Source of the DNA: Escherichia phage BAU.Micro_ELP-22
Length of the DNA: 64,000 nt
Sequence record: OR699282.2
Direction: 5' to 3' (one strand)
Shown here in pieces: positions 1,646 to 20,554 of the stretch. A program made the position numbers and the translations under genes. Position 1 is the first letter of the stretch; each line of letters starts with the position of its first letter. The notes beneath the pieces are model-generated. The model saw only the letters and a list, made by a program, of their open reading frames with translations, had not been told where the DNA came from and did no database searches.

Positions 1646-1709
1646 AGTACTTGCACCGTACTGATAAAAGCGTATAATGTTTTACATCGAGAGCGGGAAC
1701 ACTTCCCGC
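1646..1709 (+). promoter_or_regulatory. Early promoter + stem-loop cassette (PeSL-like)
   Basis: AGTACT 1646-1651, -35 TTGCAC 1651-1656, -10 TATAAT 1673-1678, hairpin GCGGGAA-CAC-TTCCCGC 1693-1709. Confidence 0.7.
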
Positions 1710-1724
1710 TACACTTTAAAAGAG

Positions 1725-2096
1725 ATGAAAACGATGGCGACTCAAATCAATAAAATCATGCTTAACCTGGTAAACTTCCGCGATGAGATGAAAGGTCTTC
1801 CGGCTGAAACTGTAAAAATTCACATTGCAGCTTATCGGGAACTTATTGCAATGTTGCCGCTTAAGCGTGAACAATACGCCGCTACTTTGATGCTGGATTC
1901 AATGATCCATATAATGATCTCAAATGATTTGACGATGGTTTATCAGTATATGGGCGAAAATTTCGCGGTGTGTAGTAAGCCAGTACCAGGGATGGCAACA
2001 ACTGAGGAATTGCACGGCTTAAACTTAAAACAAGATGCATGGGATAATATGCCTCGTTTCCTGGTATGGGCTGACAGTGGCAAAATTTACAAATAA
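1725..2096 (+). CDS. hypothetical protein (123 aa)
   Basis: Track ORF 1677..2096 trimmed to first ATG after promoter/hairpin; SD-like AAGAG just upstream. Confidence 0.65.
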   Translation: MKTMATQINKIMLNLVNFRDEMKGLPAETVKIHIAAYRELIAMLPLKREQYAATLMLDSMIHIMISNDLTMVYQYMGENFAVCSKPVPGMATTEELHGLNLKQDAWDNMPRFLVWADSGKIYK

Positions 2097-2105
2097 GTTT
2101 AATAA

Positions 2106-2169
2106 AGTACTTGCATACTAAGTTAAAACAAGTATAATACTTTCTATCAGGTGGGGAATAGTTCCCCAC
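2106..2169 (+). promoter_or_regulatory. PeSL-like promoter cassette
   Basis: AGTACT 2106-2111, TTGCAT 2111-2116, TATAAT 2133-2138, hairpin GTGGGGAATAGTTCCCCAC 2151-2169. Confidence 0.7.
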
Positions 2170-2190
2170 TATAATTAAGAGATTAATTTT

Positions 2191-2424
2191 ATGAGTACTA
2201 TTTTAACTGTTTCTCAATCCGTTGCACTGACTGACCTATTAAACGCTTTAAGCCGTTGCACTGAGGTTGGCTTGTTTGATGTGGTTGACGTTGCACCGGA
2301 CGTTATTAATCATTTTTGTGATGCGATGGAAGAATGTAAGGAAGATGATAGCCGTATGATGGCGGTCGCCTTTGAGGAAGTACAGCCAGGTGAGATCAAA
2401 GGTTTACCAGTACTGAAAAAATAG
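2191..2424 (+). CDS. hypothetical protein (77 aa)
   Basis: ATG 2191 after SD-like AAGAG; downstream of PeSL 2106-2169. Confidence 0.7.
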   Translation: MSTILTVSQSVALTDLLNALSRCTEVGLFDVVDVAPDVINHFCDAMEECKEDDSRMMAVAFEEVQPGEIKGLPVLKK

Positions 2425-2486
2425 TACTTGCAAACTAAGTTTAAAAGCGTATAATGTTTTACATCAGGTGGGGAATAGTTCCCCAC
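2423..2486 (+). promoter_or_regulatory. PeSL-like promoter cassette
   Basis: AGTACT 2423-2428, TTGCAA 2428-2433, TATAAT 2450-2455, hairpin 2468-2486. Confidence 0.7.
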
Positions 2487-2506
2487 TATATAAGAGGATT
2501 AAAAAA

Positions 2507-2746
2507 ATGGCAAAATCAAAAATGTTCTTAGGTCACAAAAACAAAACTCATTGGAATGTAAGCCTGTGGATTAATAACGATGAGGGATTGTATCGGTTGG
2601 CCCTGGATTTTATTAACGACAACACTAATCGCAATGATGCGGCCCGTCATATGATGTTATTTTTAGAACAGACTGGACAAGATAAAACACCGGACGGATT
2701 CAAATATAGCACTACTGCGATCCGTGCGGCGATGGTTGGAATGTAA
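2507..2746 (+). CDS. hypothetical protein, early paralog family A (79 aa)
   Basis: Track ORF 2468 trimmed to ATG 2507 (SD AAGAGGA); paralog of 4620..4859 (GHKNKTHWNVSLWINN ... TPDGFKYSTTAIRAAMVGM). Confidence 0.7.
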   Translation: MAKSKMFLGHKNKTHWNVSLWINNDEGLYRLALDFINDNTNRNDAARHMMLFLEQTGQDKTPDGFKYSTTAIRAAMVGM

Positions 2747-2765
2747 TAGAATAGAATTTATTTAA

Positions 2766-2799
2766 AGTACTATCGCAAAAAATGATAGTACTTTATAAT
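2766..2799 (+). promoter_or_regulatory. Promoter-like site with AGTACT inverted repeat
   Basis: AGTACTATC...GATAGTACT inverted repeat 2766-2792, TATAAT 2794-2799; no clear -35. Confidence 0.45.
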
Positions 2800-2836
2800 A
2801 GTGTTTTATTCATACACCAACGATAAGGGCAACAGC

Positions 2837-3103
2837 ATGAATATTAAGTATTTTGCGACGCGTGAACAAGCTCGGATCGCCGCACGCCAGGACGGGGCAA
2901 CGTTTAAAGATATGGGCGTACAATCGGAACGTGGTAAACGTTGGGCCATTGTAAAGCGTAGTACCGCCAGATCATTACAGTACTGGTTAGCGGCCTTAAA
3001 AAGTCCCGATAGTGTATCGCGTCGAGTGGTAGAAATAAAGCTCGACCGAAAGGGCAACCGCGTGACCGTGTACCGTACTAAAAAGATTGCAGTACTTGAA
3101 TAA
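2837..3103 (+). CDS. hypothetical protein, early paralog family B (88 aa)
   Basis: Track ORF 2801 trimmed to ATG 2837; N-terminal YFATREQARIAAR..TFKDMG and C-terminal DRKGNRVTVY shared with 16025..16420. Confidence 0.65.
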   Translation: MNIKYFATREQARIAARQDGATFKDMGVQSERGKRWAIVKRSTARSLQYWLAALKSPDSVSRRVVEIKLDRKGNRVTVYRTKKIAVLE

Positions 3104-3105
3104 AA

Positions 3106-3169
3106 AGTACTTGCAAACTAAGTTTAAAAGCGTATAATGTTTTACATCGAGAGCGGGAACACTTCCCGC
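3106..3169 (+). promoter_or_regulatory. PeSL-like promoter cassette
   Basis: AGTACT 3106-3111, TTGCAA 3111-3116, TATAAT 3133-3138, hairpin GCGGGAACACTTCCCGC 3153-3169. Confidence 0.7.
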
Positions 3170-3190
3170 CTATAACCTGGAGTAATAAAA

Positions 3191-3421
3191 ATGACTAATA
3201 TGTATATGACTGAAGTTAAAACCGTAAAAGATACTACCACAAATAAAGTTACTTACTTACAGCGGATCTGTGGTGTATGGCAACGTATCAGCAAATCAAA
3301 GTACTTTAAATTAACATCATATGCAAACCGTTCGGATTCATTCAGTACTGAAATAAAAGGTAATAAAGTACACCAATATGGCACTTATTATTATTATAGC
3401 CTGGACGCGATTGCAGTATAA
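3191..3421 (+). CDS. hypothetical protein (76 aa)
   Basis: ATG 3191 with SD GGAG; follows PeSL. Confidence 0.7.
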   Translation: MTNMYMTEVKTVKDTTTNKVTYLQRICGVWQRISKSKYFKLTSYANRSDSFSTEIKGNKVHQYGTYYYYSLDAIAV

Positions 3422-3451
3422 GCAGTTTACAAATCTTTACAATTGCCGGTA

Positions 3452-3530
3452 TTGACTTATTTTGTCAGTACTGGCATAATGTATTCATTGGCAGATAAGC
3501 CGTAGCCCATAGGGTGCGGGAGTGTATCTA
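3452..3530 (+). repeat. Repeated intergenic element, type A (promoter-like + conserved GCCCAyAGGGTGC segment)
   Basis: TTGACT 3452-3457, CATAAT 3475-3480, then CATTG..AGATA..TAGCCCATAGGGTGCGGGAGTGTATCT; related copies at 10639, 14687, 17668, 19931. Confidence 0.6.
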
Positions 3531-3561
3531 TAGAAAAATTAGTTTAGTATAGTTACAATTG

Positions 3562-3625
3562 TGCACCCGGTGGGTTAGCTGTTGTCATGTGGTATATTAT
3601 GCCAGTACTTGATAATGCTGTCAAT
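3562..3625 (-). repeat. Repeated intergenic element, type B (minus-strand promoter-like + CTAACCCACCGGGTGC)
   Basis: Reverse complement reads TTGACA-17-CATAAT then ..CTAACCCACCGGGTGCAC; convergent with element at 3452-3530; similar to 5798-5869 and 12313-12388. Confidence 0.55.
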
Positions 3626-3665
3626 ACTTTTTTTTACTATTCAGTACTGAAAACTATTTTTAAAA

Positions 3666-3698
3666 AGTACTTGCAAACTATGTTTAAAGGCGTATAAT
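3666..3698 (+). promoter_or_regulatory. PeSL-type promoter driving a non-coding element
   Basis: AGTACT 3666-3671, TTGCAA 3671-3676, TATAAT 3693-3698. Confidence 0.65.
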
Positions 3699-3705
3699 GT
3701 TTTAC

Positions 3706-3780
3706 ATCAGGACGGGGAACGAAATAAGTAACTTCCCGTTAAGTAGCCCAGGAGTAAGGCACACGAAAAACTCCCCTGAT
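3706..3780 (+). ncRNA. Candidate small structured RNA (repeated about 75-nt element)
   Basis: Starts at predicted TSS; closing helix ATCAGG/CCTGAT plus internal helix ACGGGGAA/TTCCCGT; no ATG; second copy at 14831-14903 with substitutions and a 2-nt indel. Confidence 0.4.
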
Positions 3781-3788
3781 AAAATAGT

Positions 3789-3816
3789 TTGACAAATGTT
3801 TTTAAAAGCGTATAAT
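3789..3816 (+). promoter_or_regulatory. sigma70-like promoter
   Basis: TTGACA 3789-3794, 16-bp spacer, TATAAT 3811-3816. Confidence 0.6.
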
Positions 3817-3848
3817 ACTTACATCAACTACTGAATGAGGGTTACAAA

Positions 3849-4537
3849 ATGAAAACTATCACTACTACTACTTTCGTTATGGATTTTTCTGAATTGAACG
3901 CAGAACAAAAAACGTCAGCTATCGAACTGGTTCGGGAACGTGAAAAAAACTCAAACGACATTTTTCTGAATTGAACGCAGAACAAAAAACGTCAGCTATC
4001 GAACTGGTTCGGGAACGTGAAAAAAACTCAAACGACAATTATTTTTCTGAAAGTGAAATTGAATACTATAAAGAAACAGTACTACCGGAATATGGCATTA
4101 ATGACGCTGAAATACAATTCAGTGGTTTTTGGTCCCAGGGTGACGGTGCATCAATCAGTACTGACCACGTTGACGCAGTGAAGTTTTTACGCAAGGTAAG
4201 AGCATTAACTAAGTATCGCTCAATCCGTCACTTGCTGAATGAAGATGATTTGGCGATGAGTGTAAAGCGTTCGCACTCCCACTACTCGCATGAGAATACT
4301 GTAAGCGGGTACATTGAATCGGCTTACACTGATTTAACCGCAAAACAAGAAACGTTAGTTAATGAGCTTGAGGAACTACTCACTGAAACTATTCGTGAAT
4401 TGTCCCGCAAGTTGTACCGTGATTTAGAGAATGCATATGAGGATCAATTCACTACTGAAAACATTACGGCACTGATTGAGGGTAACGAGTATCAATTCAA
4501 TGTTATTGATGGCGTAGTGGAATCAATCGAATATTAA
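3849..4537 (+). pseudogene. Acidic hypothetical protein gene disrupted by a 77-bp perfect tandem duplication
   Basis: ATG 3849; units 3884-3960 and 3961-4037 identical; 77 is not a multiple of 3, so frame from 3849 stops at 3972-3974 and the remainder (3971..4537) lacks an ATG; removing one unit restores one ORF. Confidence 0.7.
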
Positions 4538-4544
4538 TTTAAAA

Positions 4545-4600
4545 AGTACTTGTTTAAAGGCGTATAATACTTTATATCGAGGCGGGGAGTGGTTCCCCGC
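4545..4600 (+). promoter_or_regulatory. Degenerate PeSL cassette (shortened spacer)
   Basis: AGTACT 4545-4550, TATAAT 4563-4568 but -35/-10 spacing collapsed relative to other copies; hairpin GCGGGGAGTGGTTCCCCGC 4582-4600. Confidence 0.4.
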
Positions 4601-4619
4601 TCAAACGAGGATTAAAAAA

Positions 4620-4859
4620 ATGGCTAGTACTAAAACTTACAACGGGCACAAAAACAAAACTCATTGGAATGTAAGCCTTTGGATTAATAACGGTGAGTCA
4701 TTGTATCGGCTTGCTCAAAGTTGCATCGCACAAAGTAGAACTAAAGATATTGCAGCGGAATGTATGTACCGCAGATTAAAAGCCAACGGTACTACTACAA
4801 CGCCGGACGGATTCAAATATAGCACTACTGCGATCCGTGCGGCGATGGTTGGAATGTAA
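4620..4859 (+). CDS. hypothetical protein, early paralog family A (79 aa)
   Basis: ATG 4620, SD GAGGA; paralog of 2507..2746. Confidence 0.7.
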   Translation: MASTKTYNGHKNKTHWNVSLWINNGESLYRLAQSCIAQSRTKDIAAECMYRRLKANGTTTTPDGFKYSTTAIRAAMVGM

Positions 4860-4916
4860 TATTCAGTACTGAGATAATGGCGGGTAATAGTTCCCGCCTT
4901 TACTGAGGGTTATCTA

Positions 4917-5204
4917 ATGAGTAAAGTAATAAAGTACAATGTGTTAAGCAAATCATTGTCTATCAGTGAATGCACCGATGGTTTTTGGATGTACGATGAA
5001 ACGCGTGGCATGAATTTAGCTATGCGTGCAAAAACTGCTGAGGCGGCGTATATTCAAGCACTGGAATACTACCAGGAACGTTTAAAGGAAGTAGAAGAAG
5101 ATTATAAAAGCCTCAAAGCGAAAGTAGATCATTTCGTCGGTCAATTCGTGGAAGACAACGACGAGGACGGGCACTACTGCGACCGTTGCGGATCTTACAG
5201 TTAA
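4917..5204 (+). CDS. hypothetical protein (95 aa), C-terminal Cys pair
   Basis: ATG 4917, SD GAGGG; start context CTGAGGGTTATCTAATGAGT repeated at next gene. Confidence 0.65.
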   Translation: MSKVIKYNVLSKSLSISECTDGFWMYDETRGMNLAMRAKTAEAAYIQALEYYQERLKEVEEDYKSLKAKVDHFVGQFVEDNDEDGHYCDRCGSYS

Positions 5205-5221
5205 GTACTGAGGATTATCTA

Positions 5222-5425
5222 ATGAGTGATTTAATCGACCGCATCAAAGAGCTTGAAGAAAAAGAATTGCAGTTGATCGGGTTACGGAATAAAGTATTCC
5301 ATGATTTAGGTGGCTTTATTAATGCCTGGGATAGTGGCGATCCTGATGCGTTACCTGCTAACCGCCAGGCGATGATCAATGATGTGCGTGGTGTCTTTGA
5401 GTATGTTTTAAAGCAATTAAATTAA
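5222..5425 (+). CDS. hypothetical protein (67 aa)
   Basis: Track ORF 5186 (TTG) trimmed to ATG 5222; SD GAGGA. Confidence 0.65.
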   Translation: MSDLIDRIKELEEKELQLIGLRNKVFHDLGGFINAWDSGDPDALPANRQAMINDVRGVFEYVLKQLN

Positions 5426-5428
5426 AAA

Positions 5429-5492
5429 AGTACTTGCAATTAGTTTTCAGTACTGTATAATGGTTTACATCAAAGGGAGAAATGGTTCTCCC
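5429..5492 (+). promoter_or_regulatory. PeSL-like promoter cassette
   Basis: AGTACT 5429-5434, TTGCAA 5434-5439, TATAAT 5456-5461, hairpin GGGAGAAATGGTTCTCCC 5475-5492. Confidence 0.7.
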
Positions 5493-5511
5493 TGGTAATG
5501 AGGAAAATAAA

Positions 5512-5733
5512 ATGGCAAATATCACTACTCTTTCCCAACTGGAAGCACTGGTTAAATCTATGCGGGAACATGCCGACAAAATCGGCGTACAAGATCCAGC
5601 CGTTTGCTTCTGCGACGAATTGAATGATGATACCCTGGTAATAGCAGAAGTCCAGGACGTTTCTAACTATTCCTCGCGTTACACTGGCGGCGTAGCAAAT
5701 AAAGGTGACTTCTGTTTATACCTTACAAAATAA
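5512..5733 (+). CDS. hypothetical protein (73 aa)
   Basis: Track ORF 5482 trimmed to ATG 5512; SD GAGGAA. Confidence 0.7.
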   Translation: MANITTLSQLEALVKSMREHADKIGVQDPAVCFCDELNDDTLVIAEVQDVSNYSSRYTGGVANKGDFCLYLTK

Positions 5734-5738
5734 CAACG

Positions 5739-5768
5739 CGGGGAGATAATAACTCCCCGTTACTTTTT
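5739..5768 (+). terminator. Rho-independent terminator
   Basis: Stem CGGGGAG/CTCCCCG 5739-5759 with loop ATAATAA, then TTACTTTTTC. Confidence 0.65.
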
Positions 5769-5797
5769 CAGTACTGAATCATTTAATAGACGGATCT

Positions 5798-5869
5798 CGG
5801 CACCCGGTGGGTTAGTGACTGTTTCGTCTTGATGTAGTAATTATGCCAGTACTGGATGCACTTGTCAAC
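5798..5869 (-). repeat. Repeated intergenic element, type B
   Basis: Reverse complement: TTGACA-17-CATAAT then ACATCAAGACGAAACAGTCACTAACCCACCGGGTGC. Confidence 0.55.
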
Positions 5870-5901
5870 AACTATTTTTCAAATACTTTTTATTAAAATA
5901 C

Positions 5902-5954
5902 TTGCTAATAGTTTTTAAACGCGTATAATGTTTTGCATAGGGGAGCGGTTCCCC
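5902..5954 (+). promoter_or_regulatory. PeSL-like promoter cassette
   Basis: TTGCTA 5902-5907, TATAAT 5924-5929, hairpin GGGGAGCGGTTCCCC 5940-5954. Confidence 0.65.
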
Positions 5955-5975
5955 TGGTAACTAAGGAATAAGAAA

Positions 5976-6212
5976 ATGCTTGAACAAATCAAATCAACGT
6001 CTGCTAATGTAACGGGAACGGTATCACACTTTATTGGTGATGAATCGCGGGGCGTTCCCTATTGTGCTGTACATGTAAACACTGAGGGTAACTACTGGTT
6101 TACGGTTTACGGATCATATTCATTTGGACGGCCAGGGCATCAAAAAATTCTGGATAAAGTACAGCCAACGGGTAAAAATATCACGGCTGAAATGTTTTAT
6201 AAAAAATCATAA
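5976..6212 (+). CDS. hypothetical protein (78 aa)
   Basis: ATG 5976, SD AAGGAA. Confidence 0.7.
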   Translation: MLEQIKSTSANVTGTVSHFIGDESRGVPYCAVHVNTEGNYWFTVYGSYSFGRPGHQKILDKVQPTGKNITAEMFYKKS

Positions 6213-6276
6213 AGTACTTGATAATAGTTTTTAGTACTGTATAATATTTTACATAGCACGGGGGAGCGGTTCCCCC
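6213..6276 (+). promoter_or_regulatory. PeSL-like promoter cassette
   Basis: AGTACT 6213-6218, TTGATA 6218-6223, TATAAT 6240-6245, hairpin GGGGGAGCGGTTCCCCC 6260-6276. Confidence 0.7.
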
Positions 6277-6296
6277 TGGTAACTAAGGATAATCAA

Positions 6297-6596
6297 ATGA
6301 AAATTGCAATCATCGCCCTGGCTTTATCTGTTTCCTCTTTCGCTGTTAATGCGTCGTTAGATGTGAGTAGTGAAAAATTCATTCAGTGCACTGTTGCGAT
6401 GACCAATGAAAGTACGGGCGAGATTGTTTTAAAGGATTTAGAGATCCAGCCACAAGCATTTAAAAACGGGCCGTTCCATGAAGAAGACGAAAACGGTAGC
6501 ACAACCATTTACTATGATGCCAGTACTAAACGCGGTTCGGTCACGGTTATGGATACTGAGAAAGTAACTCATACAGGCGTTATTAATTGCCGTTGA
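6297..6596 (+). CDS. small secreted/periplasmic protein (99 aa) with N-terminal signal peptide
   Basis: MKIAIIALALSVSSFAVNA-SLD: basic N-terminus, hydrophobic core, AxA-like cleavage motif; SD AAGGA. Confidence 0.65.
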   Translation: MKIAIIALALSVSSFAVNASLDVSSEKFIQCTVAMTNESTGEIVLKDLEIQPQAFKNGPFHEEDENGSTTIYYDASTKRGSVTVMDTEKVTHTGVINCR

Positions 6597-6617
6597 TTGA
6601 TACTACGGGGTAACATC

Positions 6618-6848
6618 ATGACAGCACGAATAGTTTTACTTAACGAAAGCAGTACTACACAACTACTTAACGCCGTGCATTATGATATTGAAACGAGCGT
6701 TAATCTTATCAGTACTGTCGTACTGTTGGACACTGGAAAGGTCGCCAATGATAAAGCGATTGCAGGTATACTAACGGATCTTGAGCCTGGTAGCAGTGCA
6801 CCAATAACGTTAAATGGTAAAGTGTTTAACATTTTACTTACTGATTAA
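6618..6848 (+). CDS. hypothetical protein (76 aa)
   Basis: Track ORF 6597 trimmed to ATG 6618 (GGGG upstream); immediately follows 6297..6596. Confidence 0.55.
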   Translation: MTARIVLLNESSTTQLLNAVHYDIETSVNLISTVVLLDTGKVANDKAIAGILTDLEPGSSAPITLNGKVFNILLTD

Positions 6849-6854
6849 GTACAT

Positions 6855-6883
6855 AGCCCACCTGGTGGGCTTTTTTGTTTTTG
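6855..6883 (+). terminator. Rho-independent terminator
   Basis: AGCCCACC..GGTGGGCT stem followed by TTTTTTGTTTTTG. Confidence 0.7.
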
Positions 6884-6930
6884 TAGTATCGTAGTACTGA
6901 GATACTTTGAAAATAGTTTTAAAAAAGTAG

Positions 6931-6958
6931 TTGACATTACCGCAGAAAAGCGTAGAAT
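6931..6958 (+). promoter_or_regulatory. sigma70-like promoter
   Basis: TTGACA 6931-6936, 16-bp spacer, TAGAAT 6953-6958. Confidence 0.6.
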
Positions 6959-6965
6959 GTATTAC

Positions 6966-7027
6966 ATCAAGACGGGGAGCACTAAGTAGACCGCCAGTAA
7001 GTCGAACGAAAAACTGGACACGTCGAG
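6966..7027 (+). ncRNA. Diverged third copy of the candidate structured RNA element
   Basis: ATCAAGACGGGGAGC..AAGTAG..CAGTAAG..ACGAAAAACT resembles 3706-3780 and 14831-14903; no ORF. Confidence 0.3.
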
Positions 7028-7081
7028 AAAACTTTGATACACTAATAAACGTAAACTAAACTTTAATTGAGGATTTATAAA

Positions 7082-7564
7082 ATGGCTAATGTAAAATCAT
7101 TCATCAAAGCACTGGTAGCAAATGAAACTAACGTCGCGGCTGAGATCCTGGCTGAACTGGATAACGATACCATGAAAGCGGTACGCAATAATTTTAACAT
7201 CGCGTACAGTACTGCGAAAGAACTACAAGCAAATAAAGCGGCAGAAATTGAAGCGGCAAAGGCGGCCCGTGAAGCAGAACTACAAGCAACAATCGAAAGT
7301 ATTCAGGCGGCAGTAGTTGGATTGGATCTGGAAGTAGTTACAGAGATGGCACAAAAAGCCCTGGCGGTTAAGTATGGGGAAGACAAGCCAGAAGTAAAAG
7401 CCAAAAAATGGATTCAGGAACGCGTAGCGGTAGTACTGGACAACGGGGAAGAATATCTGATTCCGGTGCGTGGTAACTGTATTGCGGTAGTACTGGACGC
7501 GATTAACTCCAGTGGTATGACTCGCGAGGAATGGATCGAAGCTCATCGCAAAGTTGAAGCATAA
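7082..7564 (+). CDS. hypothetical protein (160 aa), Ala/Glu-rich helical N-terminus
   Basis: Track ORF 7067 trimmed to ATG 7082, SD GAGGA; followed by strong terminator. Confidence 0.7.
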   Translation: MANVKSFIKALVANETNVAAEILAELDNDTMKAVRNNFNIAYSTAKELQANKAAEIEAAKAAREAELQATIESIQAAVVGLDLEVVTEMAQKALAVKYGEDKPEVKAKKWIQERVAVVLDNGEEYLIPVRGNCIAVVLDAINSSGMTREEWIEAHRKVEA

Positions 7565-7585
7565 CAATTAAAGTACTGAATCACT

Positions 7586-7822: not shown

Positions 7823-7849
7823 TCCTTCCAAATCAAAGGAATCAAAACA

Positions 7850-14658: not shown

Positions 14659-14686
14659 AAATAATTGAAAAAGGGATTGACTCCGG

Positions 14687-14750
14687 TCAGTCCCTTTGCT
14701 ATTATATACGCATAGAAACAAATCAGCCCACAGGGTGCATAAATGTATCT
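14687..14750 (+). repeat. Repeated intergenic element, type A
   Basis: TTGACTCCGGTCAGTCCCTTTGCTATTATAT then CGCATAGAAACAAATCAGCCCACAGGGTGCATAAATGTATCT. Confidence 0.6.
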
Positions 14751-14790
14751 ATTGTTAGCTGGTGGCTAGTACTGAAAACTATTTTTAAAA

Positions 14791-14823
14791 AGTACTTGCA
14801 TTGTACTTAGAATCAAGTATAAT
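14791..14823 (+). promoter_or_regulatory. PeSL-type promoter driving non-coding element
   Basis: AGTACT 14791-14796, TTGCAT 14796-14801, TATAAT 14818-14823. Confidence 0.65.
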
Positions 14824-14830
14824 GTTTTAC

Positions 14831-14903
14831 ATCAGGACGGGGAACGAAACAAGTAACCCCGTTAAGTAGTCCAGGAGTAAGACATACGAAAACCTCCCCT
14901 GAT
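14831..14903 (+). ncRNA. Candidate small structured RNA (second copy)
   Basis: ATCAGGACGGGGAACGAAACAAGTAACCCCGTTAAGTAGTCCAGGAGTAAGACATACGAAAACCTCCCCTGAT; same layout as 3706-3780. Confidence 0.4.
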
Positions 14904-14911
14904 AAAAAAGA

Positions 14912-14940
14912 TTGACAATAGTTTGAAGTACTGATAAAAT
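14912..14940 (+). promoter_or_regulatory. sigma70-like promoter
   Basis: TTGACA 14912-14917, 17-bp spacer with AGTACT, TAAAAT 14935-14940. Confidence 0.5.
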
Positions 14941-14972
14941 AATCACATCAACTACTGATAAGGAAACATAAA

Positions 14973-15248
14973 ATGCGGATTCTACTGACAGCTAACGAAA
15001 TCGAACAAGTACTGACTACTAACCTGGAAGACTGGAAACGTGAAGCAGATATCCAGGCGGTTCAATGGCTTAACGATAAGTTAACGCCGGATGACTTAAG
15101 CAAGATTGTAGATCCTCAATTCTACGAAGATATTCACGACACCGCGTTAAGCGTCGAGGATGTACTAGATAAGCACTACATTGATACTGATTTGCAGGTT
15201 TACGGTCGTAAAAACTTTATCACTATTCACGATATTTACAATAATTAA
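14973..15248 (+). CDS. hypothetical protein (91 aa)
   Basis: ATG 14973, SD AAGGAA. Confidence 0.7.
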   Translation: MRILLTANEIEQVLTTNLEDWKREADIQAVQWLNDKLTPDDLSKIVDPQFYEDIHDTALSVEDVLDKHYIDTDLQVYGRKNFITIHDIYNN

Positions 15249-15249
15249 G

Positions 15250-15310
15250 TATTGACAAAGTATCTTAGTACTGTATAATAGTTTACATCGAGAGGGGGAA
15301 TGGTTCCCCT
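15250..15310 (+). promoter_or_regulatory. PeSL-like promoter cassette (identical 44-bp promoter, copy 1 of 3)
   Basis: TTGACA 15252-15257, TATAAT 15274-15279, hairpin GGGGGAATGGTTCCCC; same promoter at 15519 and 18096. Confidence 0.7.
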
Positions 15311-15334
15311 CCTAACTAAAAGAGAGAAATAAAA

Positions 15335-15517
15335 ATGGCTAAGTGCACTATCTGTAATAAAGAAATAGTATTAGTTCCAAGTGCCCGTGAACGTGCCGCT
15401 CGGTTCGGTGGCAAAGCGTCAGACTATACAAAAATGTTTACTGCCCATACAGCTTGCCAGGTAGCAAAACGTTCACAAGAAAGCGTAGAATTAATGCGTA
15501 AACTTTCCAAAAAATAA
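15335..15517 (+). CDS. small Cys-containing protein (60 aa)
   Basis: ATG 15335; CTICNKE ... HTACQ possible zinc-ribbon; SD-like AGAGAGA. Confidence 0.65.
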   Translation: MAKCTICNKEIVLVPSARERAARFGGKASDYTKMFTAHTACQVAKRSQESVELMRKLSKK

Positions 15518-15518
15518 G

Positions 15519-15582
15519 TATTGACAAAGTATCTTAGTACTGTATAATAGTTTACATCAAGTGAGGGGAAACGGTTCCCCTC
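15519..15582 (+). promoter_or_regulatory. PeSL-like promoter cassette (copy 2 of 3)
   Basis: TTGACA 15521-15526, TATAAT 15543-15548, hairpin GAGGGGAAACGGTTCCCCTC 15564-15582. Confidence 0.7.
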
Positions 15583-15605
15583 CTAACAAAGAGAGAGAAA
15601 TAAAA

Positions 15606-15929
15606 ATGGCTATGATCCTTACCCAGAAAGTGGAACTGAAAATTGTAACCTCCTTTGACATTAACGTTAATCGGTGGACTGATTCACACGGCAATACTTA
15701 CCACTCTTGCTACGTGTCTGCTTTAATTGGCGACCGCTGGGAAGACCTGGGACACGAAACCTTTACATACGGTTACGGTACACAAGGCGAATACACGGGC
15801 TTGGAGATCATTAAAGAAACCGTTATAGGTTTCAACCCGAAAGAAAAAGTTATTCACCGCATCGAGGAAGAGATCAACAAAGAAATAACAGTTCGCTACC
15901 ACGATGTAAAACGTAAGAAAGACATGTAA
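15606..15929 (+). CDS. hypothetical protein, early paralog family C (107 aa)
   Basis: Track ORF 15561 trimmed to ATG 15606; paralog of 8398..8721. Confidence 0.7.
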   Translation: MAMILTQKVELKIVTSFDINVNRWTDSHGNTYHSCYVSALIGDRWEDLGHETFTYGYGTQGEYTGLEIIKETVIGFNPKEKVIHRIEEEINKEITVRYHDVKRKKDM

Positions 15930-15943
15930 TAGAATCCATTTAA

Positions 15944-15980
15944 AGTACTATTTGACATTGCCCAGATAGTACTTTATAAT
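15944..15980 (+). promoter_or_regulatory. Class-II promoter
   Basis: AGTACT 15944-15949, TTGACA 15952-15957, 17-bp spacer with AGTACT, TATAAT 15975-15980. Confidence 0.65.
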
Positions 15981-16024
15981 AGACTCTAACTTGTAGTACT
16001 AACTTAACTAATAGGATGTATACC

Positions 16025-16420
16025 ATGATTACTAAATTCTACGCTACCCGTGAAGCTGCCCGTATTGTTGCACGCGAGGAAGGCGAAACATTTAAAGACA
16101 TGGGCAAAGATGCACCGAAAGGTCAACGCTGGGCCGTACAGTTCAAAGAGATCTCTGATATTGTGAATTCACCGGAGCCAGTACTAACAGCAGCAGAACT
16201 AAAACGAGCGGATTTACTGGCGTCAATACTTGATGCACAAGATGAGTTTATCGCTGATTCTGATATCAAAGTACAGACAAACCATACCGCATGGACTCAC
16301 GCGGATCACCTGGCAAACCTTAAGCGTCCAAGTGAACTGATTCGCAACCAGAAAGAGATCCGACACGACCGTAAGGGTAATCGTGTAACAGTATACAGTA
16401 AACGCCGCCAGGTTATCTAA
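16025..16420 (+). CDS. hypothetical protein, early paralog family B (131 aa)
   Basis: ATG 16025 (SD AGGA at 8 nt; alternative ATG 16016); paralog of 2837..3103. Confidence 0.65.
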   Translation: MITKFYATREAARIVAREEGETFKDMGKDAPKGQRWAVQFKEISDIVNSPEPVLTAAELKRADLLASILDAQDEFIADSDIKVQTNHTAWTHADHLANLKRPSELIRNQKEIRHDRKGNRVTVYSKRRQVI

Positions 16421-16441
16421 TAACTTGCAGTACTAACAACA

Positions 16442-16468
16442 CGGCGGGATCAGTTCCCGCCTTTTTTA
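16442..16468 (+). terminator. Rho-independent terminator
   Basis: GGCGGGA-TCAG-TTCCCGCC then TTTTTTA. Confidence 0.75.
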
Positions 16469-16481
16469 TAGGACAAACAAA

Positions 16482-16736
16482 ATGATTAAGGTTCAACTAT
16501 ATAAAGATAACATCTTACGGGTACACTATAAAGCACCACAGAGAATCATCACAAAGGCCGTACAGCTTGCTAATGAGTTTATTAATGGTAACCTATTACC
16601 TAGGAAGTTAAGCAACGGGAAACTGCGTGTAATCGACGTGGACACTAACAACAGGATAGTAATCGAGAACACAGGAAAGATAAACCTTTATGAGCATCAA
16701 CAATACAATAAGAAAATAAAACTAATATCACGTTGA
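16482..16736 (+). CDS. hypothetical protein (84 aa)
   Basis: ATG 16482; SD weak. Confidence 0.6.
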   Translation: MIKVQLYKDNILRVHYKAPQRIITKAVQLANEFINGNLLPRKLSNGKLRVIDVDTNNRIVIENTGKINLYEHQQYNKKIKLISR

Positions 16737-16790
16737 CAGTACTCAAATGTTTTAGTACTATATGTACATACCAACACGGGGAGAAACAAA

Positions 16791-17033
16791 ATGATTACTT
16801 TAGAAAAACGTATCAAAGAAACTACATCGCTGGTGGAACTGTTAACAGTACTCAAATGTAAAACTACTCGGTTTAGTACACCGGACTTTATTAATATGGT
16901 TGATGTTAACGGTCGTTATCGTATTGCAGTAGAACAAGGCACGGCAAAAGTATTCAGTACTAAAAACACTAAGGAAGTGATTCACGCGGTTAGTGTGAAA
17001 AAAGTGGTTGCCATTGATAGTAAAGTACTGTAA
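16791..17033 (+). CDS. hypothetical protein (80 aa)
   Basis: ATG 16791, SD GGGGAG. Confidence 0.65.
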   Translation: MITLEKRIKETTSLVELLTVLKCKTTRFSTPDFINMVDVNGRYRIAVEQGTAKVFSTKNTKEVIHAVSVKKVVAIDSKVL

Positions 17034-17064
17034 GATAGTTTCATTAACTCAAGGAGAACATGCA

Positions 17065-17649
17065 ATGCGTAATTATACTAAATTCATCCGTACCCTGTCA
17101 GAAATGGAAACCAACAAAGAGATCCTTTCAGCTTGTCGGTTAGCTGGCCTGGAGATCATCGGTGCTGGTTCTTCCCGTATAGTTTTCGCTTTAAATGATC
17201 GGTTAGTGATTAAGGTCGCGAATTGTGATGCGGGTGTAGAACAAAATGAAACTGAATGTAAGGTATGGAATTTTTTAGACTATGACCGCCCTCAGTTGAA
17301 ACAGTACTTTGCAAAGGTGCATATGCATTTATGCGATCCTGATAATATGTTTATCGTTATGGATCGGTTGAGTACTGCAAGCAAAGGCAGTGTGAAGCAC
17401 GTAAACGCGTGCAATGAATTAAAGTACAATATTAAACGTAATGCAATCGAACGCCAGCACCGCTTTGCTGATGCACTACAACACGTTGATGATACATTAT
17501 CAACACTAACGATAAGAGATATCAGAAAACAGAATATCGGCCAGGATCGTAATGGACTTATTAAAGTACTTGATTACGGTTTAACCAGCAATATCTGGAA
17601 TCAGTACTATAAAAAGCGTGATGTGGCAGCAAGTAAGGTAACACGATAA
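17065..17649 (+). CDS. minimal Ser/Thr protein kinase-like protein (194 aa)
   Basis: Track ORF 17008 trimmed to ATG 17065 (SD AAGGAG, 8 nt); Gly-rich loop GAGSSRIVF, Lys in VIKVAN, catalytic-loop-like RDIRKQNIG, DFG-like LDYG. Confidence 0.65.
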   Translation: MRNYTKFIRTLSEMETNKEILSACRLAGLEIIGAGSSRIVFALNDRLVIKVANCDAGVEQNETECKVWNFLDYDRPQLKQYFAKVHMHLCDPDNMFIVMDRLSTASKGSVKHVNACNELKYNIKRNAIERQHRFADALQHVDDTLSTLTIRDIRKQNIGQDRNGLIKVLDYGLTSNIWNQYYKKRDVAASKVTR

Positions 17650-17667
17650 AAAAGATTAAAAAAGGGA

Positions 17668-17746
17668 TTGACTCCGGTCAGTCCCTTTGCTATTATATAT
17701 CCATTGAGAGATAACTCACTGACCCATAGGGTGCGGAAGTGTATCT
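17668..17746 (+). repeat. Repeated intergenic element, type A
   Basis: TTGACTCCGGTCAGTCCCTTTGCTATTATAT then CATTGAGAGATAACTCACTGACCCATAGGGTGCGGAAGTGTATCT. Confidence 0.6.
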
Positions 17747-17785
17747 ATTATATAAGTATTCAGTACTGAAAACTATTTGATAAAA

Positions 17786-17850
17786 AGTACTTGCATTGTA
17801 CTTAGAATCAAGTATAATGTTTTATATCGAGAGGGGGAAATGGTTCTCCC
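17786..17850 (+). promoter_or_regulatory. PeSL-like promoter cassette
   Basis: AGTACT 17786-17791, TTGCAT 17791-17796, TATAAT 17813-17818, hairpin GGGGGAAATGGTTCTCCC 17833-17850. Confidence 0.7.
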
Positions 17851-17872
17851 TGGTATATTAAGGAATAAAATC

Positions 17873-18094
17873 ATGACTACAATGACTTGCATTTACGCTT
17901 CCAATCTTCTGAATGATGCGGCCTTTAATGTTGATTCAGAATATCAATGTTATCGGGATGAAAATAAAAAAGTTTTTGTAGTTGATAATAATGGTTTCCA
18001 TATTGAATTGCAATCCGGTTTCACTGGTGTTGATGGTAAATCAGTATGGGGCGTACAGGATGATAAAGGCACATATCATTTTAAACGTAATTAA
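17873..18094 (+). CDS. hypothetical protein (73 aa)
   Basis: Track ORF 17777 trimmed to ATG 17873; SD AAGGAA. Confidence 0.7.
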   Translation: MTTMTCIYASNLLNDAAFNVDSEYQCYRDENKKVFVVDNNGFHIELQSGFTGVDGKSVWGVQDDKGTYHFKRN

Positions 18095-18095
18095 G

Positions 18096-18156
18096 TATTG
18101 ACAAAGTATCTTAGTACTGTATAATAGTTTACATCAAGGGGAGAATAGTTCTCCCC
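18096..18156 (+). promoter_or_regulatory. PeSL-like promoter cassette (copy 3 of identical promoter)
   Basis: TTGACA 18098-18103, TATAAT 18120-18125, hairpin GGGGAGAATAGTTCTCCCC 18138-18156. Confidence 0.7.
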
Positions 18157-18180
18157 ACACCAATAAAAGGAAACATAATT

Positions 18181-18453
18181 ATGTCTAGCTACTCCGCTAC
18201 TATGATCATTAAAGATATGAACGGTAATCCTACTTCTGCTGGTGGATCATTTGGAAACATTAATTTAGATGGTCGGTTATCCATGCAATCAGCAATCGAT
18301 GCAGCGAAAGAAGTTTTTAAGAATGAATGTACTGTTAGTAAGCTGGATTATATGGGATTTGCTATCGAAAAAACTAATCGTTTTGTGAACTACAAAAAAC
18401 CATTGATGATTGATACTAACCTGAAAGCTAACGAAGTGGAGTACTTATTATGA
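18181..18453 (+). CDS. hypothetical protein (90 aa)
   Basis: ATG 18181, SD AAAGGAAA. Confidence 0.7.
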   Translation: MSSYSATMIIKDMNGNPTSAGGSFGNINLDGRLSMQSAIDAAKEVFKNECTVSKLDYMGFAIEKTNRFVNYKKPLMIDTNLKANEVEYLL

Positions 18454-18641
18454 CAGTTGAAGAAGTTAAAAAAGTACTGGCAGTACTACGCTATCATAAT
18501 CATTGCAAGGTGAAGAATGATCCTGATTATCTCGATTCATCCCTGGAAGAGGATACACTACAAGCAATAAGCCATATGCAAACATTAGCAAAGCGTATGA
18601 CTGAAAAGAACATGCCGGACTATATCGGAAATAAAATTTAA
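18450..18641 (+). CDS. hypothetical protein (63 aa)
   Basis: ATG 18450 overlaps upstream stop (ATGA). Confidence 0.6.
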   Translation: MTVEEVKKVLAVLRYHNHCKVKNDPDYLDSSLEEDTLQAISHMQTLAKRMTEKNMPDYIGNKI

Positions 18642-18643
18642 AA

Positions 18644-18710
18644 AGTACTTGCATTGTAGTTAGATTAACGTATAATGTTTTATATCGAGAGGGGGAAATG
18701 GTTTCCCCTC
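18644..18710 (+). promoter_or_regulatory. PeSL-like promoter cassette
   Basis: AGTACT 18644-18649, TTGCAT 18649-18654, TATAAT 18671-18676, hairpin GAGGGGGAAATGGTTTCCCCTC 18687-18710. Confidence 0.7.
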
Positions 18711-18728
18711 AAGTCCAGGAGATACACC

Positions 18729-18992
18729 ATGAACACTATCGAAATCACTATCAATGCACACGTATACGACAACGTAGTACTGCAAACTACTATGACCGCT
18801 AATGATACCAGTACTTTGCGGAATACTGTTATTAGTGCCGTATGTGCCGCTATCGGTGATGTCGCCCTGGAAAATGCAAAACACGTAAACGATGGTTTCA
18901 CTATGTGCAAACGTGATAACGCAAAACATATCATCGTAGAAGGTTACGGCGGTGTAGAATATAATGTTTATATGAAAAAAGTACTTGCATAA
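18729..18992 (+). CDS. hypothetical protein (87 aa)
   Basis: Track ORF 18675 trimmed to ATG 18729 (SD AGGAGA); C-terminal codons overlap -35 of next PeSL. Confidence 0.7.
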   Translation: MNTIEITINAHVYDNVVLQTTMTANDTSTLRNTVISAVCAAIGDVALENAKHVNDGFTMCKRDNAKHIIVEGYGGVEYNVYMKKVLA

Positions 18993-19041
18993 TAACTAAA
19001 ACAAAGTATAATGTTTTGCATAGGGGGAGATATCCTCCCCC
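18980..19041 (+). promoter_or_regulatory. PeSL-like promoter cassette
   Basis: AGTACT 18980-18985, TTGCAT 18985-18990, TATAAT 19007-19012, hairpin GGGGGAGATATCCTCCCCC 19023-19041. Confidence 0.7.
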
Positions 19042-19059
19042 ACTAAAAGGAGTAATAAA

Positions 19060-19284
19060 ATGGCTAACTTTGATGAACTGATGCGGGAAGTAGCTACCCT
19101 GGCAGAAGAAAAGAAATCATTCGATTCTATCTATAGCACCGCTCACCGTGATTCAGTACTGGCATGTAACCAGGATCAAAAAGATGAACTAATCGCCACC
19201 TATCATGAAGCATGGAAGTACTACCGACAATGGGAGAAAGAAGAAAGAGAGTCTACCATTGACGGCCTCAATAATCTAATCTAA
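19060..19284 (+). CDS. hypothetical protein (74 aa)
   Basis: ATG 19060, SD AAGGAG. Confidence 0.7.
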   Translation: MANFDELMREVATLAEEKKSFDSIYSTAHRDSVLACNQDQKDELIATYHEAWKYYRQWEKEERESTIDGLNNLI

Positions 19285-19296
19285 AAGTTTTATTTC

Positions 19297-19333
19297 AGTA
19301 CTATTGACATAGCTTGATAGTACTGATGTAATA
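19297..19333 (+). promoter_or_regulatory. Class-II promoter
   Basis: AGTACT 19297-19302, TTGACA 19304-19309, AGTACT in spacer, -10-like GTAATA. Confidence 0.55.
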
Positions 19334-19360
19334 ACTTTACTAACTACAAGGGGAAACATA

Positions 19361-19618
19361 ATGGAACAGTTCACACAATATCGGGTAAATCCTCAAGCTA
19401 TGGCCTACGTAGAAGACCATAAAACATTACCAGTACTAACACCAATTAAAGGCCATATCTATCGTGCAATGTCATGGAATACCGCCCAGGATAGATATAC
19501 TACCGCTGGCGTGGGTATGTATTGCGGGAATGGTGAATGGTTTGATCCAAATAATCCGGTAGCCATTGACAGTACTGAAAAAATGAAATGGGCCGACTAC
19601 ATCGAAGATATTTCATAA
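19361..19618 (+). CDS. hypothetical protein (85 aa)
   Basis: ATG 19361, SD GGGGAAA. Confidence 0.65.
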   Translation: MEQFTQYRVNPQAMAYVEDHKTLPVLTPIKGHIYRAMSWNTAQDRYTTAGVGMYCGNGEWFDPNNPVAIDSTEKMKWADYIEDIS

Positions 19619-19625
19619 AAACTAT

Positions 19626-19686
19626 TTGACAGTACTAACCAGTAATGTATAATGTTTTACATAGAGCGGGGGAATAGTTCTCCCGC
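19626..19686 (+). promoter_or_regulatory. PeSL-like promoter cassette
   Basis: TTGACA 19626-19631, TATAAT 19648-19653, hairpin GCGGGGGAATAGTTCTCCCGC 19666-19686. Confidence 0.7.
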
Positions 19687-19708
19687 CAATAGTTTGGAGT
19701 AAAACATT

Positions 19709-19909
19709 ATGTCTATCGCTATCGCCCTGGTTGAAGTACTGAAAGAAGCTAAAGCCAACCAGATCGACGTAAAGATCCAGGAACTACAAAACGGCGTAAT
19801 CGGCTGTACTTGTACCGCTGGTGGAGCGGCAGACTATCGAGAACACGAATCACTCGAATCACTGGTTCGGTATCTTACCATGATCGTTGATGATTGGAGA
19901 ATCATCTAA
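19709..19909 (+). CDS. hypothetical protein (66 aa)
   Basis: ATG 19709, SD GGAG. Confidence 0.65.
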   Translation: MSIAIALVEVLKEAKANQIDVKIQELQNGVIGCTCTAGGAADYREHESLESLVRYLTMIVDDWRII

Positions 19910-19930
19910 CAAAAAAGAATAAAAAAGGGA

Positions 19931-20004
19931 TTGACTCCGGTCAGTCCCTTTGCTATTATATACGCATAGACAAAAACTAGCCCACAGGGTGCATAGGTGT
20001 ATCC
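19931..20004 (+). repeat. Repeated intergenic element, type A
   Basis: TTGACTCCGGTCAGTCCCTTTGCTATTATAT then CGCATAGACAAAAACTAGCCCACAGGGTGCATAGGTGTATCC. Confidence 0.6.
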
Positions 20005-20070
20005 AAAATATATAGTTAATAACGGTGAGTAACTATCTGCTGGTGGAGTGAAAACTATTAATAAAAAAGT

Positions 20071-20100
20071 ATTGACAAAGTATATCAGTACTGCGATAAT
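20071..20100 (+). promoter_or_regulatory. sigma70-like promoter
   Basis: TTGACA 20071-20076, spacer with CAGTACTG, GATAAT 20095-20100. Confidence 0.55.
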
Positions 20101-20153
20101 GTATCTCGTAGGGCGGCAATGGTGCAACGGCCCACAAAGTTAGGAGATTCAAA

Positions 20154-20486
20154 ATGAGTACTTCAATCGCTATCGTTAAAGCTTTCATCCGTACCAATGT
20201 TTCATCTGTATTCATCGACGGACTGGATCGTGAAGTAGAATACTCAATCATTATCGCACAGACTGCAAACGGTGCTCGGTATATCCTCAATGATAGTGAA
20301 GCAAATCACTACTACTTCACTAAAGCTACTGGCTTTAAACGCATCGATGCCGATGTAGTATACGCTAAGATGAATAAGCTGGTAGACAAGATTAACGCTA
20401 AAGGCACTATTGATTTACAGTACTGGACCGAAACCGATCCAGAATATGGATCTCACCGCTACCTGAATCCAGGTATCAAAATGTAA
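20154..20486 (+). CDS. hypothetical protein (110 aa)
   Basis: ATG 20154, SD AGGAGA. Confidence 0.7.
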   Translation: MSTSIAIVKAFIRTNVSSVFIDGLDREVEYSIIIAQTANGARYILNDSEANHYYFTKATGFKRIDADVVYAKMNKLVDKINAKGTIDLQYWTETDPEYGSHRYLNPGIKM

Positions 20487-20488
20487 AA

Positions 20489-20554
20489 AGTACTTGCATA
20501 GTACTTAGATTCATGTATAATGTTTTACATAGAGAGGGGGAAATGGTTCTCCCT
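20489..20554 (+). promoter_or_regulatory. PeSL-like promoter cassette
   Basis: AGTACT 20489-20494, TTGCAT 20494-20499, TATAAT 20516-20521, hairpin GAGGGGGAAATGGTTCTCCCTC 20533-20554. Confidence 0.7.

Follow-up and report, generated by a model that had tools for sequence, protein, structure and literature searches.

What is the promoter-hairpin unit that recurs ahead of small genes at the left end of Escherichia phage BAU.Micro_ELP-22, and what does its hairpin do? We addressed this question in a 64,000-nucleotide (nt) stretch of the phage sequence record (OR699282.2; hereafter, the window), in which a first-pass annotation had marked positions 1646-20554 as an early region filled with the promoter early stem-loop (PeSL) cassettes of T4-type phages. 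The reading we favor, with moderate confidence, is that a host-takeover gene array occupies the ~21.4-kb terminal repeat of an Asteriusvirus and is driven by cassettes that recombine with one another; each carries a hairpin that is fixed in position, selected as RNA, and probably used as a 5' stability and insulation element rather than as a terminator.

Sequence comparison identifies the window as the left end of a jumbo coliphage of the Asteriusvirus group (121Q/PBECO4/phAPEC6-like). This is not a T4-type phage: the genomes that match best belong to Asteriusvirus and measure ~350 kb. Positions 1600-9600 align to these E. coli jumbo myophages, including ECO103 4-12-1, phAPEC6, UE-S1, and TH47, with 90-97% identity and patchy coverage. 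Position 1 of vB_Ec-M-J aligns with position 1 of the window; the direct terminal repeat annotated in that genome spans 1-21525, and its right end aligns to window position ~21407. The repeat mapped in this way (1-21407, no strand assigned) contains the entire cassette array. G+C content is 36-41% inside the repeat and ~31% past its end, and the terminal repeats of other Asteriusvirus genomes measure 20.7-21.0 kb (PMC13070987, PMC11895373). Given the vB_Ec-M-J alignment, the G+C shift, and the repeat sizes of relatives, the marked region coincides almost entirely with the terminal repeat of this jumbo phage, which is not T4-like. A crude count places 53 plus-strand genes within it.

A scan for the promoter pattern TTGNNN-N16-TA[TG]AAT returned 32 plus-strand matches in positions 1-24000, compared with a mean of 0.5 and a maximum of 3 in dinucleotide shuffles. 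Elsewhere, the pattern occurs twice on the minus strand and is absent from the plus strand of 24-64 kb. All but one of the 32 matches (31, at 1651-20576) fall within or just beside the span first marked. The full module, found ahead of 25 of the 53 plus-strand genes, extends over ~85 bp in a constant order: an A-rich tract, AAAA(A)GTAC, that carries the stop codon of the preceding gene; AGTACT; a promoter near consensus for the host sigma-70 polymerase (TTGCAA or TTGACA, 16 bp, TATAAT); a yAy start motif; the hairpin; an A-rich and stop-codon-rich linker; a Shine-Dalgarno sequence, present before each ATG; and the ATG itself.

Hand curation yielded 25 canonical cassettes, 23 of them intact and two with a damaged -35 or -10 (4548, 13321). 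Their hairpins are G/C-rich, with stems of 6-9 bp, loops of 3-5 nt, and folding energies of -11 to -16 kcal/mol; the 5' arm is nearly pure purine and the 3' arm nearly pure pyrimidine. Across the 25, the stem starts 8-14 nt past the -10 (mean 11.9, SD 1.3) and ends 17-24 nt 5' of the ATG. A fold of ≤ -10 kcal/mol within 34 nt 3' of the -10 is found at 24 of the 32 promoters but in 2.7-4.3% of background windows. Single hairpins score between -1.3 and -5.2 against shuffles (z-scores), and the significance of the set comes from its constant position. No T run follows any cassette stem, and none of the 25 hairpins was listed by the terminator scan. A search of window positions 1-24000 with Rfam covariance models gave no match at E ≤ 1.

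We placed the transcription start from promoter geometry alone; it falls 8 nt past the -10, on the A of a conserved yAy motif. The predicted leaders are then 39-50 nt long (mean 45, SD 2.7), with hairpins beginning at +2 to +7 and preceded by 1-6 unpaired nucleotides (median 5). Folding in silico leaves 74%-77% of the Shine-Dalgarno region unpaired.

The array is thus as real as the first-pass annotation had supposed, with several of its details revised. Instead of about 30 cassettes, we count 25-28 (25 canonical, plus three promoters with a longer structure), and these precede about half of the small genes (25 of ~53) rather than most; roughly 10 further genes of the repeat have a promoter but no hairpin. 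The spacer, given as 16-17 bp, is 16 bp in nearly all promoters. The example stem arms are all present, the last of them reading GGGGGAG/CTCCCCC, with the extra C belonging to the loop. AGTACT does form part of 27 of the 31 promoters, in one of two set positions, either across the 5' edge of the -35 or directly against the -10, but the hexamer is also ~20-fold over-represented throughout the window.

This hexamer, a ScaI site often found as CAGTACTG, shows a 10- to 24-fold excess in the window and in a RaK2-like locus. The terminal repeat has 137 copies where 6.2 are expected, the remainder of the window 118 (10.9 expected), and the RaK2-like locus 204 (8.4 expected); phi92-like loci show no enrichment (0 versus 1.5). 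All three codon phases contain the hexamer (61/45/59), with enrichment outside open reading frames (ORFs), so the selection is on DNA. Our literature search found no paper combining "AGTACT" and "jumbo."

Is the hairpin maintained as RNA? We built a covariance model from the window cassettes with a hand-set structure and used it to search the window and 18 related loci. It recovered 249 instances, 32 of which are in the window, all before 20.6 kb. Reduced to its 136 distinct best sequences, the set has 92.9% of its cells paired (83.6% in shuffles), and 126 cells have changed on both sides (43 in shuffles). The covariation score of 0.426, against 0.244 for shuffles, was reached by 0 of 500 shuffles, and slid-partner controls scored at most 0.184. 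Compensatory change is present in all 8 of the 8 stem pairs, along with ~95 G.U cells. A plain MAFFT alignment was dropped: it set 3-nt and 4-nt loops out of register and gave only a weak RNAalifold structure.

Since the copies share ancestry and the covariance-model alignment had been fitted to the structure, we added ortholog and strand tests. Orthologous cassettes were compared among ECO103 4-12-1, phAPEC6, UE-S1, and TH47, leaving out cassette 15521. The -10 box shows 0 changes in 390 positions. Changes per site are 0.029 and 0.046 in the two stem arms, compared with 0.050 in coding DNA, 0.070 in the leader, 0.096 in the loop, and 0.119 in the spacer. When a single stem position changes, the pair is retained in 17 cases, nearly all by G.U wobble, versus 2 changes to A.C (p = 0.0007). 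The plus-strand fold is also better than that of its complement in 26 unique hairpins versus 9 (p = 0.012). Wobble asymmetry is meaningful only for plus-strand RNA, and we therefore conclude that selection acts on plus-strand RNA. Covariation, the G.U bias among orthologs, and the strand bias in folding together bear out the earlier proposal that RNA structure in these leaders is under selection.

The same architecture recurs in other phages with unrelated sequences. In a Klebsiella jumbo phage that is 97% identical to RaK2 here, a leader of 9-14 nt separates TTGACA-N16-TATAAT from a hairpin, and GGAG and ATG lie ~20-30 nt beyond the hairpin; its stems (GGAGATTCCA/TGGAATCTCC, GGGGATACA/TGTATCCCT, and GGGAATGAA/TTCATTCCC) are unrelated to those of the window. 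Two phi92-like Justusliebigvirus genomes (~150 kb) have a matching layout with the stems GGCGGGAAA/TTTCCCGCC and GGGCGGCA/TGCCGCCC. That position and pairing are kept across groups while the sequence is free to vary is the strongest covariation evidence we have. We found no published description of a leader-hairpin cassette array: papers on RaK2 and the related CBB, on PA5oct, on fEgEco12 and Sharanji (both Asteriusvirus), and on rV5 report sigma-70-like promoters at most, with no promoter-linked leader hairpin or cassette-bounded indels, and our literature search did not find PeSLs described for jumbo phages of the Asteriusvirus group. Separately, 13 records labeled "Campylobacter phage" match the coliphage region; one of these, A145 (MG065645), is classified as Justusliebigvirus and carries coliphage-type cassettes, and its Campylobacter host label looks doubtful.

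Cassette sites are where genes have been inserted, deleted, or replaced between relatives. From collinear megablast chains against the same four genomes, and with cassette zones extended by 15 nt on either side, we identified 28 distinct indel or replacement events. Of their 51 distinct endpoints, 30 fall inside cassettes, where 17.9% would be expected (p = 8e-11), and for 12 events this is true of both ends. Most of these 12 leave a junction repeat of 54-101 bp, a single cassette on one side of the comparison aligning to both flanking copies on the other. These one-cassette junction repeats, which imply homologous recombination between neighboring cassettes of the kind proposed for PeSLs, are the specific evidence for cassette recombination. 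The idea that the cassettes are units that shuffle small genes is supported by these events.

Several events can be read directly from the array, in which every cassette is on the plus strand (stem arms are given in capitals where spelled out and loops in lowercase). Gene 2191-2424, which phAPEC6 lacks, lies between cassette 2111-2193 (hairpin 2150-2170, GGTGGGGAA tag TTCCCCACT; ATG 2191), the left copy of an 80-bp junction repeat, and cassette 2428-2509 (hairpin 2467-2487, ATG 2507). Gene 5976-6212 is bounded by cassettes 5902-5978 (hairpin 5938-5956, TAGGGGA gcggt TCCCCTG; ATG 5976) and 6218-6299 (hairpin 6260-6276, GGGGGA gcggt TCCCCC; ATG 6297), which form an 85-bp junction repeat relative to TH47. 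Gene 9909-10160 is flanked by cassettes 9830-9911 (hairpin 9868-9887, AAGGGGAA aacg TTCCCCTT; ATG 9909) and 10169-10249 (hairpin 10209-10228, ATG 10247). Three relatives are missing gene 15335-15517, located between cassettes 15252-15337 (hairpin 15292-15311, GAGGGGGA atgg TTCCCCTC; ATG 15335) and 15521-15608 (hairpin 15563-15582, ATG 15606), with a junction repeat of 97 bp. Three genes are spanned by cassettes 17791-17875 (hairpin 17832-17851, ATG 17873) and 18649-18731 (hairpin 18689-18710, GAGGGGGAA atgg TTTCCCCTC; ATG 18729), which share a 72-bp junction repeat relative to TH47. Recombination junctions are likewise found at cassettes 9601-9682 (hairpin 9641-9660, ATG 9680), 18098-18183 (hairpin 18138-18156, ATG 18181; 101-bp junction repeat), and 10772-10853 (hairpin 10813-10831, AGGGGAAA cgg TTTCCCCT; ATG 10851), where a 92-bp junction repeat marks the site of an extra gene in ECO103 4-12-1.

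The remaining cassettes follow the same plan. The first, at 1651-1736, has its -35 (TTGCAC) at 1651, a -10 ending at 1678, a hairpin at 1692-1710 (AGCGGGAA cac TTCCCGCT), and its ATG at 1734. Those at 3111-3193 (hairpin 3153-3169, GCGGGAA cac TTCCCGC; ATG 3191) and 5434-5514 (hairpin 5474-5493, AGGGAGAA atgg TTCTCCCT; ATG 5512) are followed by one with two G.U pairs at 7767-7852 (hairpin 7807-7828, GAGGGGGAA acgg TTCTCCTTC; ATG 7850) and by 8086-8165 (hairpin 8126-8145, GGGGAGAA atga TTCTCCCC; ATG 8163), 11207-11290 (hairpin 11247-11265, ATG 11288), and 13943-14022 (hairpin 13983-14002, ATG 14020). The right end of the array contains cassettes 18985-19062 (hairpin 19023-19041, GGGGGAG atatc CTCCCCC; ATG 19060), 19626-19711 (hairpin 19666-19686, GCGGGGGAA tag TTCTCCCGC; ATG 19709), and 20494-20578 (hairpin 20534-20555, GAGGGGGAA atgg TTCTCCCTC; ATG 20576). 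The two damaged variants are 4542-4622, with a truncated -35 (hairpin 4581-4601, GGCGGGGA gtggt TCCCCGCT; ATG 4620), and 13321-13399, with a degenerate -10 (hairpin 13361-13379, AGGGGAA acatc TTCCCCT; ATG 13397); both, like cassette 1651, are matched by the covariance model.

What, then, does the hairpin do? Judging from its sequence and placement, it is probably a 5'-proximal stability and insulation element. Structures at the 5' end stabilize transcripts because RppH and RNase E require single-stranded 5' ends (reviewed in PMC3997798). The hairpin would limit the access of both enzymes to the 5' end of short early mRNAs and would keep the ribosome site free regardless of the gene upstream; in read-through transcripts, it may double as a 3' barrier.

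Several considerations weigh against the favored reading. The transcription start from which hairpin position is reckoned was placed by promoter geometry. According to work from the Belasco laboratory, protection is reportedly best with no more than ~2-4 unpaired 5' nucleotides, and with a predicted median overhang of 5 nt it may be partial. About 10 promoters of the array have no hairpin. The covariance alignment was fitted to the structure, and paralogous stems share descent, so that covariation counts among paralogs are non-independent. Under an unbiased symmetric rule, paralogs show 20 G.U versus 9 A.C (p = 0.06); the ortholog substitution count (17 versus 2) is the cleaner test. An earlier paralog count of 19:3 was rejected, as the hairpin finder accepted G.U only. 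Finally, since an indel has to end between genes to be viable, some of the breakpoint enrichment at cassettes is to be expected.

A broader proposal, which we regard as possible but doubtful, is that the cassette is a portable early-gene unit common to three or more unrelated groups of large enterobacterial phages (Asteriusvirus, RaK2-like Alcyoneusvirus, and phi92-like Justusliebigvirus), with genes moving along with it from lineage to lineage, and that its hairpin would shield phage early mRNAs from a phage-induced, 5'-end-dependent attack on host mRNA. A candidate for such joint transfer of gene and cassette is window 4556-4690, which begins at the -10, takes in the hairpin, and extends 70 nt into the gene; its nucleotide identity to the phi92-like phage PaulScherrer is 82%.

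Other explanations would give the hairpin a role different from stability and insulation. As in strict PeSLs, whose stem-loops are described as terminators of upstream transcription (PMC2839356, PMC4122927), the hairpins could be terminators or attenuators that halt read-through from the upstream cassette. PeSL stem-loops are likewise poly-G/poly-C and are reported to terminate (PMC2839356), as shown for one RB49 stem-loop, and with few canonical terminators in the array, read-through must be limited somehow. We nonetheless consider this unlikely. A U-tract follows none of the cassette hairpins, and each lies 1-6 nt past its own predicted start, so near that termination would abort its own transcript; for these reasons, we do not regard the hairpin as a terminator. 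Moreover, separate terminator-like hairpins are present (6855, 7586, 16443, and four composite elements described below).

Alternatively, the hairpin could be recognized by a phage or host RNA-binding factor, serving nut/boxB-like or put-like antitermination, nuclease processing, or enzymatic modification of the 5' end. Like nut and put, it lies close to the promoter in each transcript, and the start A and leader AUC/AUA are fixed. A conserved recognition surface is nevertheless missing: loops vary widely (tag, atga, atgg, cac, gcggt, and atatc), stems vary between phage groups, and Rfam offers no match, all of which make such a role decidedly improbable. Also very hard to sustain is a role as DNA, whether as an operator for a dimeric phage repressor of early transcription or as a recombination-stimulating cruciform. 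Operators typically occupy this position (+2 to +27), Asteriusvirus cassettes share a fairly conserved GGGGAA...TTCCCC core, and PeSL crossovers have been mapped in the loop or adjoining it. But the stems of RaK2-like and phi92-like cassettes are wholly different while complementarity is kept, the loops are non-palindromic and variable in length, and G.U is tolerated where A.C is not, an asymmetry that is meaningless in duplex DNA. Scarcely tenable, and rejected here, is a translational switch in which the pyrimidine-rich 3' arm masks the Shine-Dalgarno sequence unless held by the 5' arm: when the 5' arm is deleted in silico, the unpaired share of the Shine-Dalgarno region drops from 0.77 to 0.50, but a 3' arm of shuffled sequence has the same masking effect (0.51), marking this as a base-composition effect, and no natural process is known that yields transcripts without the 5' arm.

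Beyond the canonical cassettes, the region contains other promoters and structured elements. Promoters without a hairpin, all on the plus strand, include consensus examples at 3789-3816, 11790-11817, 12905-12932, and 15952-15980; a second class, TTGACA N17 CATAAT with TG upstream, at 8326-8354 and 11520-11548; and two more at 14912-14940 and 16733-16761, the last inside a junction repeat of 62-85 bp where relatives have an extra gene. In the element at 3671-3788, the cassette-type promoter leads into a longer structure (3711-3740) and ~90 nt without an ORF, after which comes the next promoter; 14796-14911 is a copy of this element (structure 14836-14863), and both are conserved in relatives. 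A third plus-strand promoter, with a TAGAAT -10, precedes a long non-coding leader (6931-7081). All three promoters are matched by the covariance model, precede ~90-150 nt of structured RNA that contains no ORF, and may drive small RNAs.

Hairpins that overlap a -35, the anatomy expected of PeSLs, are confined to four separate plus-strand elements listed by the terminator scan. The one at 10632-10667 is a composite in which a 12-bp hairpin contains the -35 (TTGACT), followed by N17 and TATTAT, and those at 14670-14705, 17661-17696, and 19924-19959 are of the same type. By sequence, these four look like true PeSL-type terminator/promoter units, and they may close blocks of cassettes. Cassette-type hairpins (GGCGGG...CCCGCC) without a canonical promoter are found at 4879-4898 and 16443-16461; the latter precedes TTTTTT and scores as a terminator.

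Conserved non-coding elements of ~100-170 bp lie at ~1070-1330, 3452-3624, 5770-5868, 10632-10745, 12313-12400, 14670-14780, 17661-17770, and 19924-20010. They share the motifs tagcccaYagggtgc and gcacccggtggg and have no Rfam match. Convergent promoters surround some of them (plus strand 3452-3480 with minus strand 3624-3596; also minus strand 5868-5840), and the elements may be sense/antisense small RNAs. An 85-bp tandem duplication (~3890-3974 and ~3975-4060), which relatives do not have, breaks ORF 3849-4537 into 3849-3974 and 3971-4537, either as a real disruption or as an assembly artifact. Degenerate short repeats at 720-900 (GGCTAGAT, GGCTAAAC, and GGATGG), ~0.8 kb from the left end of the genome, may be connected with packaging or the terminus. 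Positions 1-21300 contain 19 copies of CCCTGG (1.6 expected), a hexamer that includes the Dcm site CCWGG. Just past the end of the repeat, 21506-24084 holds a paralogous array of at least 12 tightly overlapping ORFs of ~65-90 amino acids with a common motif, GTNYQE or LGTNYQ, and no individual promoters.

These findings widen the range of cassette-mediated shuffling of genes beyond T4-like phages, to jumbo and phi92-like phages, and locate it in a terminal repeat, DNA that is presumably the first to enter the cell. They also recast the stem-loop as a transcribed leader element under RNA-level selection, and offer a testable handle on how host-takeover genes are expressed and renewed in very large phages. 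For phage engineering, the combination of a strong promoter, a 5' hairpin, and a ribosome site is a compact natural part, for which the ~250 cassette instances provide a data set for mutational design.

Several known systems share features with this array. The boxB hairpin of lambda nut and the put sites of HK022 are, like the cassette hairpins, small RNA structures just 3' of early promoters; they have conserved loops or structures, are bound by N or RNA polymerase, and number one or two per genome, whereas the Asteriusvirus loops vary and the element has ~25 copies. The terminal redundancies of SPO1 and T5 carry, as host-takeover or pre-early arrays, many small early genes with strong host-type promoters and enter the cell first, resembling the present array in gene content, promoter type, and location in a long terminal repeat; we know of no description of a conserved leader hairpin or of cassette-mediated shuffling in them. 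A closer parallel for the hairpin is provided by the 5'-terminal mRNA stabilizers of E. coli, the ompA and papA leaders (Emory, Bouvet and Belasco 1992, as cited in PMC3997798), in which, as predicted for the phage cassettes, a stable hairpin lies very near the 5' end and leaves the ribosome-binding site free. The phage hairpin differs from these as a repeated, portable element on some 25 genes. Its predicted overhang (median 5 nt, with the start taken from promoter geometry) also exceeds the optimum said to apply.

The closest relatives remain the PeSLs, described in the T4-like phages RB49/phi1, T4/PST, and KVP40/nt-1 (Arbiol 2010, PMC2839356; Comeau 2014, PMC4122927). In the definition of a PeSL, an A/T-rich tract containing the stop codon of the preceding gene is combined with an early promoter of sigma-70-like type, a poly-G/poly-C stem-loop, a Shine-Dalgarno sequence, and an ATG; PeSLs cluster in hyperplastic regions, where they mediate indels, and their stem-loop is placed 5' of the -35, overlaps either box, or falls between the two (rarely between the -10 and the start), which makes it part of the upstream transcript (PMC2839356, PMC4122927). 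The units studied here are alike in their ~85-100 bp repeats with an upstream stop codon in an A/T-rich tract, their early sigma-70-type promoters and G-tract/C-tract stem-loops, the Shine-Dalgarno sequence and ATG at the 3' end of the motif, their concentration between small ORFans in a hyperplastic region, and the indels and replacements of relatives that end within them. They differ in belonging to Asteriusvirus rather than to a T4-like lineage, in placing 25 of 25 stem-loops downstream of the -10 and predicted start, in the 5' untranslated region of their own gene, in having no U-tract and hence no terminator signature, and in being confined to a direct terminal repeat. The match to PeSLs made by the first-pass annotation thus stands for promoter, stem-loop, Shine-Dalgarno sequence, and shuffling, and fails for phage lineage, stem-loop position, and terminator signature. 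By its layout, the Asteriusvirus element is a PeSL-like cassette of different anatomy that falls outside the described PeSL set, and its hairpin probably serves a function different from that of PeSL stem-loops.

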